64,000 bases of DNA from Escherichia coli (GCF_016903815.1 NZ_CP069973.1), one strand, 5' to 3'. Shown: positions 49,886 through 56,928, counted from the stretch's first letter. Program-made: numbers and translations. Notes: generated from the letters alone by a model not told the origin.

Positions 49886-52642
49886 ATGACCAACTACAGC
49901 CTGCGCGCACGCATGATGATTCTGATCCTGGCACCGACCGTCCTTATTGGTTTATTGCTGAGTATCTTTTTCGTTGTGCATCGCTATAACGACTTGCAGC
50001 GTCAACTGGAAGATGCCGGAGCCAGCATTATTGAGCCGCTTGCAGTTTCTACTGAATATGGCATGAGCCTGCAAAATCGCGAATCTATCGGTCAGTTAAT
50101 AAGCGTACTGCATCGTCGCCATTCCGATATTGTTCGCGCGATTTCGGTTTATGATGAAAATAACCGACTCTTTGTCACCTCCAATTTTCATCTTGATCCT
50201 TCATCAATGCAGCTCGGCAGCAACGTGCCGTTTCCTCGCCAGCTCACTGTCACTCGTGACGGCGATATTATGATCCTCCGCACGCCGATTATTTCTGAGA
50301 GTTACTCCCCCGACGAATCGCCCAGTAGCGATGCCAAAAATAGTCAAAATATGCTGGGATATATTGCGCTGGAGCTGGATCTTAAATCGGTTCGCTTGCA
50401 GCAATATAAAGAGATCTTTATTTCCAGCGTGATGATGCTGTTTTGTATCGGTATTGCGCTTATTTTTGGCTGGCGCTTAATGCGCGATGTAACCGGTCCG
50501 ATTCGCAACATGGTGAATACCGTCGACCGCATCCGTCGCGGGCAACTCGACAGCCGGGTGGAAGGATTTATGCTCGGCGAGCTGGATATGCTGAAAAACG
50601 GTATCAACTCGATGGCAATGTCGCTGGCTGCTTATCACGAAGAGATGCAGCATAATATCGACCAGGCGACGTCCGATCTGCGTGAAACGCTGGAGCAGAT
50701 GGAAATTCAGAACGTTGAGTTGGATCTGGCGAAAAAGCGCGCCCAGGAAGCGGCGCGTATTAAATCCGAGTTTCTGGCAAATATGTCACACGAGCTGCGT
50801 ACACCACTGAATGGTGTTATTGGCTTTACCCGCCTGACGCTGAAAACAGAATTAACACCAACGCAGCGCGATCACCTGAATACGATTGAACGTTCGGCAA
50901 ATAATTTGCTGGCAATTATTAATGATGTTCTCGACTTCTCGAAACTGGAAGCAGGTAAGCTGATTCTGGAAAGTATTCCATTCCCACTACGCAGCACGCT
51001 GGATGAAGTCGTTACCCTGCTGGCACATTCTTCTCACGATAAAGGGTTGGAACTGACGCTCAATATTAAGAGCGACGTGCCCGATAACGTGATCGGCGAC
51101 CCACTGCGATTACAGCAAATCATCACTAACCTGGTGGGGAATGCAATTAAATTCACCGAGAATGGCAACATTGATATTCTGGTAGAAAAACGTGCGCTGA
51201 GTAATACCAAAGTGCAGATTGAAGTGCAGATTCGGGATACCGGCATTGGTATTCCTGAACGCGATCAATCGCGCTTATTCCAGGCCTTCCGACAGGCTGA
51301 TGCCAGTATTTCCCGCCGTCATGGTGGTACCGGGCTGGGGCTGGTGATTACACAAAAACTGGTTAATGAAATGGGCGGCGATATTTCGTTCCATAGCCAG
51401 CCGAATCGCGGTTCAACTTTCTGGTTCCACATTAATCTCGATCTGAATCCGAACATTATTATCGAAGGGCCATCCACCCAGTGCCTCGCCGGCAAGCGCC
51501 TGGCCTATGTCGAACCAAACTCCGCAGCAGCGCAATGCACGCTGGATATTTTAAGTGAAACGCCGCTGGAAGTGGTTTATAGCCCAACGTTCTCCGCGCT
51601 GCCTCCCGCGCATTACGACATGATGTTGTTAGGCATCGCGGTGACCTTCCGCGAGCCGCTAACAATGCAACATGAGCGATTAGCGAAAGCAGTATCGATG
51701 ACCGATTTTCTCATGCTGGCACTTCCTTGCCATGCACAAGTCAATGCTGAAAAACTTAAGCAAGATGGTATCGGCGCGTGTCTGCTGAAACCATTAACAC
51801 CTACGCGCCTGTTACCTGCCCTGACGGAATTTTGTCATCACAAACAAAACACGCTTTTGCCTGTAACCGATGAAAGTAAGCTGGCAATGACAGTCATGGC
51901 GGTTGATGACAACCCCGCTAACCTGAAACTTATCGGCGCATTGCTGGAAGATATGGTGCAACATGTGGAACTTTGCGATAGCGGGCATCAGGCGGTTGAA
52001 CGGGCGAAACAGATGCCGTTCGATTTGATCTTAATGGATATTCAAATGCCGGACATGGACGGTATTCGGGCCTGCGAACTCATCCACCAGCTCCCCCATC
52101 AGCAACAAACGCCGGTTATCGCGGTAACGGCGCATGCAATGGCCGGGCAAAAAGAGAAGCTGCTTGGCGCAGGGATGAGCGATTATCTGGCGAAACCGAT
52201 TGAAGAAGAACGATTGCATAATTTGCTGTTGCGCTACAAGCCTGGCAGCGGTATTTCCTCTCGCGTCGTGACGCCCGAAGTCAACGAAATTGTGGTGAAC
52301 CCGAATGCGACCCTCGACTGGCAACTGGCACTACGCCAGGCAGCAGGAAAAACCGATTTAGCGCGCGATATGCTGCAAATGTTACTCGATTTCCTGCCTG
52401 AAGTTCGCAACAAAGTTGAGGAACAGCTGGTTGGAGAAAACCCGGAAGGCCTGGTTGATTTGATTCATAAACTGCATGGCAGTTGCGGCTATAGCGGTGT
52501 GCCGCGTATGAAGAATCTCTGCCAACTGATCGAACAACAGCTACGTAGCGGTACTAAAGAAGAAGATTTGGAGCCGGAGCTGCTGGAACTGTTAGACGAG
52601 ATGGATAATGTAGCGCGCGAAGCCAGCAAAATTCTCGGGTAA
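49886..52642 (+). CDS. barA: Hybrid sensor histidine kinase BarA (HAMP, HisKA/HATPase, receiver, HPt)
   Basis: 918-aa ORF with H-box (SHELRTPLN), receiver Asp region and C-terminal HPt; recognised as BarA. Confidence 0.96.
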
Positions 52643-52716
52643 CGGACGTCTTGTCGAGTAGCAATCGGCTTTTTATGACGCTGGTTTCAGATTGGTGACA
52701 AGGTGCCTGTGTTTAT

Positions 52717-52751
52717 GCCGGATGCGGCGTTAACGCCTTATCCGGCCTACA
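52717..52751. repeat. REP element
   Basis: gccggatgcggcgttaacgccttatccggcctaca downstream of barA; matches the REP consensus. Confidence 0.75.
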
Positions 52752-52834
52752 AAACCAATTAAATTCAATAAATTAAAAAGTATGTTGGCCTGATACGTAG
52801 CGCAACAGGCAATTTTGCGTTTGGTATCAGTCTC

Positions 52835-52868
52835 AAACCGGCTCCTGAAAGAGCCGGTTTTGGTTTTC
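52835..52868. terminator. Probable bidirectional rho-independent terminator between convergent barA and gudD
   Basis: Hairpin aaaccggctc-ctgaaa-gagccggttt flanked by a T-run (plus strand) and an A-run. Confidence 0.6.
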
Positions 52869-52872
52869 TGTC

Positions 52873-54213
52873 TTAACGCACCATGCACGGGCGCTTGTTA
52901 TCAAACGTCCAGCCAGGAATCAGATACTGCATTCCCATCGCATCGTCTCGCGCACCAAGCCCGTGTTTCTGATACAGCTCGTGGGCTTTCATCACCTGAT
53001 CCATATCGATTTCTACGCCCAATCCTGGTTTTTGCGGCACCTGTACCAGCCCGCCTTTGATCTCAAACGGTTCTTTGGTCAGACGCTGATTGCCTTCCTG
53101 CCAGATCCAGTGCGTATCAATAGCAGTAATTTTACCCGGTGCAGCAGCGGCTACATGGGTAAACATCGCCAGGGAAATATCGAAGTGGTTGTTAGAGTGT
53201 GAACCCCAGGTCAGGCCAAATTCATGGCACATTTGCGCCACACGTACCGAACCTTGCATCGTCCAGAAATGCGGATCCGCCAGCGGGATATCAACGGATT
53301 GTAACGAGAGCGTATGGCCCATCTGCCGCCAGTCGGTGGCGATCATATTGGTTGCGGTCGGCAGGCCAGTCGCGCGACGGAACTCCGCCATCACTTCACG
53401 CCCGGAGAAACCTTGCTCCGCACCACACGGATCTTCTGCATAAGCCAGCGAACCTTTCAGGTATTTACCGATTTTAATCGCTTCGTTCAGCGACCAGGCA
53501 CCGTTAGGATCGAGGGTAATACGCGCCTGTGGGAAGCGTTGCGCCAGTGCCACAATAGATTCTGCTTCTTCTTCCCCGGCCAGTACACCGCCCTTCAGTT
53601 TGAAATCGTTGAAGCCATATTTTTCATATGCCGCTTCCGCCAGGCGCACCACCGCATCCGGCGTCATCGCTTCTTCGTGACGCAGGCGATACCAGTCACA
53701 TTTATCATCCGGCTGGCTTTGATACGGCAGCGGTGTGGCTTTGCGATTACCGACGAAGAACAGATAACCGAGCATTTCGACTTCGCTACGCTGTTGACCA
53801 TCGCCCAGCAGCGATGCCACGTTAACCCCCAGATGCTGCCCCAGCAGATCCAGCATTGCCGCTTCTATCCCGGTAACTACATGAATAGTGGTCCGCAGGT
53901 CAAATGTCTGCAAACCGCGCCCACCGGCATCACGATCGGCAAATGTATTACGCACCAGCGTCAGAACGTTTTTGTATTCACCCAGCGTTTTACCCACCAC
54001 CAGCGGAATCGCATCTTCCAGCGTTTTACGGATTTTCTCGCCGCCGGGAATTTCCCCTACGCCAGTGTGACCAGAATTATCTTTGATAATCACAATATTA
54101 CGCGTGAAGAACGGTGCGTGTGCACCACTCAGATTCATCAGCATACTGTCATGGCCCGCCACCGGGATGACCTGCATTTCAGTAACAACAGGCGTCGTAA
54201 ATTGAGAACTCAT
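52873..54213 (-). CDS. gudD: Glucarate dehydratase
   Basis: Track ORF 52873..54237 trimmed to [22 protein letters not shown]..., about 446 aa; enolase-superfamily. Confidence 0.93.
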
Positions 54214-54233
54214 ATTTATGTCCTTTTTCAAAA

Positions 54234-55574
54234 TCAATGACGGCCGAAAACGGGACGTTTACGGTCAAAGGTCCAGCCGGGGATCAGGTACTGCATCGGG
54301 CCCGCGTCGTTACGCGCACCGCCAGGCAGACGTTTATAGGCCTCATGCGCCTTTTGTACCTGCTCCCAGTCCAGTTCCACGCCCAGACCGGGCGCATCAG
54401 GAACGGCAATTTTTCCGTTTTTAATCTCCAGCGGATTTTTGGTCAGGCGACAATCGCCCTCCTGCCAAATCCAGTGGGTATCGATAGCGGTAGGATTACC
54501 CGGTGCCGCCGCACCCACATGGGTAAACATCGCCAGAGAGATATCAAAGTGGTTATTGGAATGGCAGCCCCAGGTCAGCCCCCAGTCGTCGCAAAGCTGC
54601 GACACGCGGACTGCACCGGAAAGCGTCCAGAAGTGCGGATCGGCAAGTGGAATATCTACCGCATTGAGCATCACCGCATGGCCCATTTCGCGCCAGTTGG
54701 TGGCGATCATGTTAGTCGCGACGGGCAAGCCGGTCGCCCGTCGAAACTCCGCCATCACTTCACGTCCGGAGAAACCCTGTTCTGCGCCACATGGATCTTC
54801 GGCATAGGTGAGAACATCATTCAGCCCTTTGCACAGAGAAATAGCTTCATCAAGCAGCCATGCTCCGTTGGGATCAACGGTAATCCGCGCATCCGGGAAG
54901 CGTTTCTTCAATGCACGAACAGTGTCGATTTCTTGCTCGCCAGGTAACACGCCGCCCTTAAGTTTGAAATCTTTAAAGCCATAGCGATCCTGTGAAGCTT
55001 CCGCCAGACGCACAACGGCTTCGCTGTTCATCGCTTTCTGATGCCGCAATTGATACCACTCATGGTTGCCCGGCGTATTTTCCAGATAAGGAAGATCGGT
55101 TTTGGTCCGATCACCGATATAAAACAGATAACCGAGGACGGTAATAGCATCGCGTTGCTTGCCTGGCCCTAACAGTTCGCAGACCGGAACATTCAGCGCC
55201 TTACCTAGCAGGTCAAGCAAGGCGGCTTCCAGCGCCGCCACGGCATTAACGCGCAATTCAAAAGTCCAGGCACCTTTGCCGAAGGTATCAAAATCGGCTG
55301 CCTGATTACCTTTATGCACCTGCTGAACCACTTTATTCAGTCGTGCGATCTCCTGGCCCAACACCATCGGAATAGCATCGACCAGTGTTTGATAAATCAC
55401 CTCTCCGCCTGGCGCTTCACCAATGCCGGAATGTCCGGCATTATCGGTGAGTACCACGATATTGCGGGTGAAATATGCGTTATGTGCACCACCAATATTA
55501 AGCAACATGCTGTCATGCCCGGCCACCGGAATGACTTTCATATCAGTAATAACAGGACTGGATTGTGTCGTCAT
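54234..55574 (-). CDS. gudX: Glucarate dehydratase-related protein GudX (paralog of GudD)
   Basis: 446-aa ORF with high similarity to the adjacent gudD product (shared blocks such as [10 protein letters not shown] and LIPGWTFD). Confidence 0.93.
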
Positions 55575-55575
55575 C

Positions 55576-56928
55576 TTATTGCCCCGCGACAGGTTTCAGC
55601 TCGATACGCTTGATATCGCCCACCAGCACCAGGTAGCTCAGCACCGCGATTAAGGCATGAACACCAACATAAATCAGCGCCCCATTAAACGAGCCAGTCG
55701 TGCCAACGATATAACCAATTGCGATTGGCGTGACGATGCCAGAAATGTTACCGAACATGTTGAACAGGCCACCGGAAAGACCGCTGATCTCTTTTGGCGC
55801 GGTATCTGCCATTACTGCCCAACCCAGCGCCCCGATGCCCTTACCGAAGAAGGCCAGCGCCATAAAACCGATGATCATCCACTCAACGTTGACGTAGTTG
55901 CAGAACACCATCACCATCGACAGCAACATGCCCATTACGATCGGTGTTTTACGCGCAATGTTCAGCGATCCCGTGCGGCGCATCAGCCAGTCGGAAATAA
56001 TCCCACCCAGCACACCGCCGATAAAACCGCAAACCGCCGGAACGGAAGCCACAAAGCCCGCTTTCAGAATCGACATCCCACGCGCCTGCACCAGATAAAC
56101 CGGAAACCAGGTAATGAAAAAGTAAGTCAGGGCGTTGATACAGTACTGACCGATATAAACGCCGATCATCATCCGTGACCCGAGCAGCTGTTTGATCTGC
56201 CCCCACTTCACGCTGAACGGCACTTTAACTTTGGTATTTTGCTGATCCATATTGATCAGCGCGCCACCCGCGGCGATGTACTCCAGCTCTTTCTGATTTA
56301 CACCCGGATGTTGATTTGGCTCGTGGATGACTTTCAACCAGATAAAGCTGATGACAATGCCCAGACCGCCCATAAAGAAGAAGACGTGTGACCAGCCCAC
56401 TTCATGCGTCAGCCAGCCCATAATCGGCGCGAAGATCACCGTTGCGAAGTATTGAGCGGAGTTAAAAATCGACACCGCCGTTCCCCTTTCCTGCGCCGGA
56501 AACCAGGCCGCAACAATGCGACTGTTGCCGGGGAAAGATGGCGCTTCAGCAAGCCCGACCAGGAAGCGCAGCGTAAACAGGGCAACGATAATGCCGAATC
56601 CACTAAAAATATCGACGAAGCCTTGCAGCAAGGTAAACATCGACCAGATAAAGATCGACCAGAAGTAGACGCGTTTTGAACCAAAACGATCCAGCAACCA
56701 ACCACCAGGGATCTGTCCGATAACATAAGCCCATGAGAAAGCAGAGAACACATAGCCCATTCCCACGGGATCAAGGCCGATATCTTTGGCCATTTCCGAA
56801 CCGGCAATAGAAAGCGTAGCGCGGTCGCCGTAGTTGAAGGATGTGACGATAAACAACATCACCACTATCCAGTAACGAGCATTTGTGCGTTTTTCCACAC
56901 TGCTCGCAGCCTGACTTAAAGAACTCAT
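55576..56928 (-). CDS. gudP: MFS glucarate/galactarate transporter
   Basis: 450-aa multi-pass ORF at the head of the gudPXD operon. Confidence 0.92.

Follow-up and report, generated by a model that had tools for sequence, protein, structure and literature searches.

The tandem genes gudX and gudD of Escherichia coli form an ancient pair whose two copies have diverged independently, the peptide common to their antisense reading frames is a by-product of the frames, no gene conversion between the copies was detected, and occasionally one repeat unit has been deleted across a short identity tract; we hold this reading of the locus with high confidence. The pair is located in the window, i.e. the whole 64 000 nt stretch of E. 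coli DNA that was analysed, to which all coordinates refer.

The locus, its genes and the age of the pair

The region is the well-known gudP-gudX-gudD operon, an ordinary locus for which the gene pair, the annotation and the protein structures were already known. In the operon gudP comes first, and gudX is upstream of gudD. The following features were identified:

52642, plus strand: 3′ boundary of barA (annotation)
52873..54213, minus strand: gudD, D-glucarate dehydratase, 446 aa (TIGR03247 equivalog; RefSeq annotation)
54234..55574, minus strand: gudX, glucarate dehydratase-related paralog, 446 aa (PDB match; RefSeq gudX)
55576..56928, minus strand: gudP, glucarate/galactarate MFS transporter (TIGR00893, 539 bits; RefSeq annotation)

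The start codon of gudD is the ATG at 54213; the mechanically called ORF, which opens with a TTG, is longer and extends to 54237. GudD scored 899.3 bits against TIGR03247, the NCBIfam equivalog for glucarate dehydratase in the enolase superfamily (curated cutoff of 828.7 bits), with all 441 of the 441 profile positions covered, while GudX scored 748.2 bits, below the cutoff, and is classified as a related paralog outside the equivalog. GudX in turn matched the PDB entries 4il0 and 4gyp, “Glucarate dehydratase-related protein”, over its full length (E-value 0, >1030 bits), and 4gyp contains a GudD chain alongside the GudX chain. The residues which we take to be catalytic or metal-binding in GudD (Y150, K205, K207, D235, E260/E266, N289, D313, H339 and N341) were all found as expected in GudD, and the aligned residues of GudX are identical. 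By its sequence, GudD is predicted to be the dehydratase converting D-glucarate to 5-keto-4-deoxy-D-glucarate. PMC11775122 gives the role of gudD in the pathway and does not mention gudX.

Over 52600–55700, the window matches E. coli strain 7/2 at 100% identity and K-12 at 96.3%. The gudD/gudX allele is the rarer one, with ≥99% identity in 147 of 5 425 genomes, and the gudX and gudD pair is complete in 5 405 of the 5 426 complete E. coli genomes. In comparison to the K-12 genes (GudD, PDB 1ec7; GudX, also called GlucDRP/YgcY, PDB 4il0), gene content, order and lengths are alike, and the differences in the window copy are allelic only. The earlier note, which was made from the sequence alone, had called the pair a known tandem duplication, and this is borne out by the RefSeq annotation and by the NCBIfam and PDB matches.

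One genome per species was scanned with a degenerate pattern for a 28-residue segment that is invariant between GudD and GudX (see below). Tandem gudX-gudD genes were found in Citrobacter, Enterobacter, Lelliottia, Mixta and two Pantoea genomes, always in the identical order, together with many single-copy gudD genes. E. coli GudD is 70–77% identical to the single-copy GudD proteins of Pseudomonas, Burkholderiales and Bacillales, and 63% identical to the neighbouring GudX. In a neighbour-joining tree, enterobacterial GudX and GudD formed separate clades with 100% bootstrap support each, and GudD grouped with the single-copy GudD of Pseudomonas, Burkholderiales and Bacillales, not with GudX. 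The tandem duplication is ancient: it predates the split of the sampled Escherichia, Citrobacter, Enterobacter, Lelliottia, Mixta and Pantoea, and the copies have been independent since.

Nucleotide divergence and natural gudX′-′gudD hybrids

When the whole genes were codon-aligned, gudD and gudX were 65.8% identical in DNA (874/1 329) and 62.8% identical in protein. The longest exact runs between them in the window were of 20, 20, 14 and 12 nt, and the repeat finder returned blocks of only 72–75% identity at a spacing of 1 364 nt, although two 90-nt sub-windows reached 80–82%. Among 11 E. coli strains, the nucleotide identity between gudD and gudX ranged from 64.4 to 66.3%, with a longest run of either 20 or 26 nt. 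Synonymous divergence (dS) was 1.60 overall, i.e. saturated, and at least 0.68 in each 40-codon window. The earlier note had read long stretches of DNA identity into the pair, to be abandoned if a pairwise nucleotide alignment gave only short, scattered identity; the alignment, run as it had proposed, gave precisely that, and with 65.8% identity overall and a longest exact run of 20 nt the claim failed.

Deletions at the locus were searched for in 5 426 complete E. coli records with a query consisting of the flanks only, 1 kb on the barA side and 1 kb on the gudP side, so that a single joined match could come only from genomes with a shortened interval. In 13 of the 5 426 records, two of them from the same strain, a single in-frame gudX′-′gudD gene of 1 338 nt was found between barA and gudP; junctions were checked directly in five of the 13, and the others were assigned by identical span, score and annotation. 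At paralog-diagnostic sites, each record examined showed a single switch from a gudX-type 5′ part to a gudD-type 3′ part. All junctions were in register, in frame and within identity tracts, which were 26 nt (twice), 20 nt and 8 nt long:

gudD 52907..52932, gudX 54271..54296: crossover site of the hybrids MS20654 and 1442; in other lineages the 26-nt exact tract ATGCAGTACCTGATCCCCGGCTGGAC
gudD 53153..53172, gudX 54517..54536: 20-nt exact tract CTGGCGATGTTTACCCATGT (sense orientation), crossover site of the hybrid of strain 2018-01-1CC
gudD 54158..54165, gudX 55522..55529: 8-nt identity CCGGTGGC (sense orientation), crossover site of the AZ147/ST540-type hybrid, i.e. Ecol_AZ147, 22F46 and six records of the same span and score
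gudD 53381..53400, gudX 54745..54764: 20-nt exact tract inside the tract singled out by the earlier note

In the window, the tract at 52907–52932 has three mismatches against gudX, and it is exact over 26 nt only in some E. coli lineages. The two hybrids that arose at this tract have different backgrounds, the gudX part of one being that of strain p11A and that of the other one mismatch away from M1/5, and their flanks also differ; they are therefore likely to be two independent events. In all, at least three independent unit-length deletions have taken place, and probably four. Among the hybrids with analysed junctions, none had its crossover at 53381–53400. Thus, of the earlier suggestion that the pair is a substrate for deletion by homologous recombination, the rare unit deletions (13/5 426) stand, while the crossovers fell in tracts of 26, 20 and 8 nt and none in the tract that had been named.

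Other deletions of the locus were not paralog-mediated. They extend over 52846–56608, 52825–55076 and 54162–55985, with junction homologies of 0–4 nt. For the gudP-gudD deletion of strain 2 HS-C, a 15-nt repeat family (D3) was considered and ruled out, as the junction is at 54162/55985 with a 4-nt overlap.

The junction positions of the hybrids and the recurrence of the deletions are shown by the records. The short identity tracts (at most 20 nt in the window strain, 26 nt in some lineages) have occasionally acted as in-register crossover points, and the crossover removed exactly one repeat unit of ca. 1 364 bp and left one in-frame gene, composed of the gudX 5′ end and the gudD 3′ end. Two pathways are conceivable, RecA-dependent exchange close to the shortest homology that it tolerates, and template switching between sister strands independently of RecA; both could explain the 20–26-nt events, and for the 8-nt event RecA-independent template switching is the more likely. 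According to PMC10343044, which cites Lovett et al., recombination in vivo is undetectable below ca. 20 bp and rises steeply from 20 to 75 bp, and the tracts used here (8–26 nt) are around or below that limit.

A RecA-independent origin of the deletions between sister strands, by template switching or by slipped misalignment, in place of RecA-mediated exchange, has in our view slightly less than an even chance. This alternative is favoured by the event with just 8 nt of identity, by the junction homologies of 0–4 nt in the other deletions of the locus, and by the recombination threshold given in PMC10343044. It is opposed by the observation that three of the four events took place at the longest tract of their own lineage (26, 26 and 20 nt), which is no shorter than the threshold of ca. 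20 bp. Since a junction of 8 nt was sufficient, long identity is not needed, and “homologous” is perhaps the wrong label, at least for the 8-nt event.

Assembly artefacts by repeat collapse are a very improbable source of the single-gene loci. The hybrids are known from database assemblies only, and the 2018-01-1CC type was found in one strain only, but repeats of ca. 66% identity are too divergent to collapse, and the hybrids come from complete genomes of unrelated laboratories and countries, with junctions that are all in frame and exactly at identity tracts. Furthermore, a strain from Israel and one from Japan share the 8-nt-junction hybrid gene without a single nucleotide difference. In a large protein collection, the exact hybrid proteins were present on 467 contigs (8-nt type), 37 contigs (26-nt type) and one contig, and the first two counts argue against an artefact.

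Hybrid genes generated by unequal crossover or direct-repeat deletion are known from haemoglobin Lepore and the red/green opsin hybrids, and tandem-repeat deletion has reportedly been assayed in E. coli by Lovett and co-workers. The gudX′-′gudD genes resemble these systems in that one unit was lost, the 5′ part is from the upstream copy and the 3′ part from the downstream copy, the junction falls in sequence common to both parents, and one tract was reused. They differ in that the repeats are just 66% identical and the tracts only 8–26 nt long, at or under the minimum normally needed for RecA exchange, and in that the reciprocal duplication junction was not found at the 26-nt or the 20-nt tract. 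For the reciprocal gudD′-′gudX junction at the 26-nt tract, no genome matched at ≥80% coverage; at the 20-nt tract, 12 records reached 90–95% identity at best and all others less than 90%, and none had a true junction.

Gene conversion and the antisense reading frames

Gene conversion was examined in a sample of 11 E. coli alleles and seven enterobacterial genomes (Escherichia included, and two of Pantoea). E. coli gudD was 65.8% identical to its own gudX (45.1% at third positions) and 66.2% identical to the gudX of other genera (45.0%), and the local excess of within-genome identity averaged 0.002 and nowhere exceeded 0.08 per 60 nt. Exact runs of 20–37 nt were also present when gudD and gudX were taken from different genera, which indicates that such runs are a product of protein constraint and codon usage, without exchange of DNA. 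Where the residue is conserved, at most 5 identical codons stood in a row, fewer than the permutation mean of 7.5. Clustering of the paralogs by species was not found in the seven-genome tree, where the gudX and gudD clades stood apart with 100% bootstrap support, and the 40-codon windows and the permutation test revealed neither low-dS tracts nor identical-codon runs of unusual length.

Polymorphisms among the 11 strains, a small panel, had at most three consecutive sites in the state of the paralog. The minor allele carried the paralog base at 31 of 56 gudD sites and at 19 of 60 gudX sites, and these matches were dropped as evidence for conversion, because silent two-fold sites force matches and the longest consecutive run was only three. 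At gudD 52907–52932, some E. coli lineages have three linked silent T/C polymorphisms in the state of gudX, which give rise to the 26-nt tract; this may be a very short, old conversion patch. The C-terminal haplotypes were compared with gudD of other genera, where both states occurred, and the sites were left unpolarised. E. coli GudD also has the GudX-type Gly in the motif PGWTFD.

As far as sequence comparison can tell, gene conversion between the copies is not detectable, and there is no sign of concerted evolution. The contrary explanation, that the paralogs keep extended tracts of nucleotide identity and are held alike by conversion, is given very little credence: although a 25-aa peptide is common to both antisense ORFs, two 90-nt sub-windows attain 80–82% identity, and the 26-nt tract owes its existence in some lineages to three linked silent changes that match gudX, the 78-nt tract encoding the peptide has 12 silent differences, dS is saturated throughout, the invariant tract included, identity within genomes equals that between genomes (maximum excess of 0.08 per 60 nt), exact runs are just as long between genera, and the clades are separated at full bootstrap support. 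With dS saturated, clustering by gene type and equal identity within and between genomes, the conversion proposed in the earlier note is unsupported. The duplicates tufA/tufB of Salmonella and E. coli, and the rrn operons, are nearly identical in DNA within a genome. The gudD/gudX genes resemble them as duplicates in one genome under strong purifying selection, and differ from them in showing no such near-identity in any test that was run.

The apparent identity between the antisense frames is explained by the reading frames themselves. The features concerned are:

53090..53443, plus strand: antisense “shadow” ORF in gudD; the shared peptide is its last 25 codons, 53366–53440
54439..54807, plus strand: antisense “shadow” ORF in gudX; the shared peptide is its last 25 codons, 54730–54804
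53359..53442, minus strand: codons of the invariant 28-aa segment in gudD, GudD residues 258–285, including E260 and E266
54723..54806, minus strand: codons of the invariant 28-aa segment in gudX, GudX residues 257–284

Both plus-strand ORFs described earlier are present, but the identical peptide of 28 residues attributed to them is complete in the first ORF only, and the common C-terminal part is 25 residues long. The 78 nt coding for this peptide and the stop codon (53366–53443 against 54730–54807) contain 12 mismatches (84.6% identity), all 12 of which are at third codon positions in the sense and the antisense frame alike. On the opposite strand, the invariant 28-aa segment is the longest identical run of the GudD and GudX proteins and lies in the barrel domain; we take it to be an active-site segment, E260 and E266 presumably being part of the metal-binding region. 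Even there, 13 of the 28 codons differ silently, with a dS of 1.37.

In this arrangement the third position of the antisense frame is that of the sense frame, and a silent change in sense is therefore mostly silent in antisense. Gene-wide, 72 of 85 sense-silent third-position differences were silent in the antisense frame too (0.85 per site), and the chance of all 11 being so is ca. 0.16. Identical antisense runs of 26 (25 aa and stop), 15 and 12 codon positions track the identical sense runs of 28, 16 and 12. An identical antisense peptide over 85%-identical DNA thus follows from the coincidence of the wobble positions of both frames on an invariant segment: the shared peptide is a reading-frame by-product of the conserved active-site segment, and no sign of DNA identity.

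The peptide recurs in the antisense frame of all 14 genes of the seven gudX-gudD genomes, often interrupted by stops. In other genera, the frame has 2–4 stops in all six gudD orthologues and 1–3 stops in five of the six gudX orthologues, i.e. 1–4 stops in 11 of the 12 pooled, some of these within the shared peptide. A Pfam search with both antisense ORFs gave no match at E≤0.1, and their N-terminal portions diverge in parallel with the sense proteins. It is therefore hardly credible that the antisense ORFs are real overlapping genes with the peptide under selection, as their being open over 117 and 122 codons on the plus strand of the window strain and the identity of their C-terminal peptide despite 11 DNA differences might suggest, when that identity is expected from the frame geometry, the frame is closed in nearly all orthologues of other genera, no Pfam family was matched, and the N-terminal portions change in step with GudD and GudX. 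Shadow ORFs opposite conserved genes are known to combine a long open frame, coinciding third positions and a peptide that mirrors the constraint on the sense protein. The same is seen here with no difference, and the gudD/gudX ORFs are a standard case.

Implications

Shadow ORFs and hybrids by unequal exchange are textbook matter, and the gudX-gudD hybrids are a new instance of a known process. A literature search retrieved no description of such hybrids and mentions of gudX in passing only; under the names GlucDRP and ygcY nothing pertinent was found, only papers on the YGCY RNA motif. For comparative analyses, the antisense peptide holds a lesson: identical antisense peptides of paralogs are no proof of DNA identity, and arise automatically when a frame that shares its wobble positions lies over a conserved sense segment. 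The hybrids indicate that tracts of 8–26 nt have been enough in nature, at least three times, for the in-frame fusion of tandem genes that are 66% identical. More tentatively, and with less than an even chance, the locus may be viewed as a weak, recurrent deletion hotspot of differing strength between lineages, the 26-nt tract being intact in only some of them and probably used twice independently, and as a natural dissection of the pair.

The hybrids divide the pair unequally. The AZ147-type hybrid consists of GudX residues 1 to ca. 18 followed by GudD and is essentially GudD only, its exact protein being the one present on 467 contigs. Two hybrid lineages have the GudX body with the last ca. 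10 residues of GudD and are essentially GudX only, and one strain has a chimera of ca. 350 and 95 residues. Glucarate use has been tied to growth in the inflamed gut (PMC11775122). The natural gudX-less and gudD-less lineages of E. coli are possible ready material for studying the role of GudX in glucarate use: if the GudX-only strains grow on glucarate, or if the GudX-less lineage shows a change in fitness, the role of GudX would be testable with existing isolates.

Natural deletions and the hybrid gene

Apart from the in-frame gudX'-'gudD hybrid that replaces the gene pair in some strains, natural deletions of the gud locus were found in other E. coli genomes, with the following extents in window coordinates.

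52846-56608, natural deletion in locus L001
52825-55076, natural deletion in locus L135
54162-55985, natural deletion in locus L136

Junction homology in these deletions was 0-4 nt, and they are not products of crossover between the paralogs. One of them produced a gudP-gudD junction, for which the PGAP label is still gudD. In the hybrid carrier MS20654 (L134, positions 1-870), barA was annotated as a partial 'response regulator' without its N-terminus, and the locus differed from that of strain 1442, also a hybrid carrier, over the first 23 nt; MS20654 thus has a second rearrangement immediately upstream. At the protein level, cluster 3 (90% identity), which holds the GudX-type hybrid, included several 450-aa GudP/MFS transporter proteins among its members, and their presence there looks like an artefact of the collection's clustering and not biology.

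Sequence features of gudD and its 3' flank

Two features were located between barA and gudD.

52714-52749, imperfect palindrome of 36 nt, REP-like, in the barA-gudD intergenic region
approx. 52838-52866, G+C-rich hairpin AAACCGGCTC..GAGCCGGTTT with T runs on both flanks, directly 3' of the gudD stop

The hairpin looks like a bidirectional terminator, and REP copies elsewhere may be the cause of the multiple megablast places per genome. Within gudD, the PGWTFD motif of the E. coli protein (window 52907-52932) has the glycine codon GGC, as in GudX, and the alignment placed N, D or E at this position in GudD of six other enterobacterial genomes. Only this glycine, taken together with the adjacent silent matches, hints that an old micro-conversion patch may exist here.

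Allelic variation and gudX pseudogenes

The gudD-gudX allele of the window (52600-55700) was uncommon, with at least 99% identity in only 147 of 5,425 genomes; the majority of the 5,425 were at 95-99%. Synonymous divergence from K-12 was 0.146 in gudD and gudX alike, and one BarA protein accession was common to many of these strains; the gud locus may be more polymorphic than its neighbour.

In E32511 and Z563, two E. coli O157:H7 strains that are not related to each other, the gudX homologue contains an internal stop and is annotated as a pseudogene.

L006 1837-3177, gudX pseudogene, homologous to window 54234-55574
L139 1737-3077, gudX pseudogene, homologous to window 54234-55574

In E32511 the stop is at codon 74. 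gudD is intact in both strains, and the interrupted gudX reading frames suggest that gudX is dispensable in this O157:H7 lineage.
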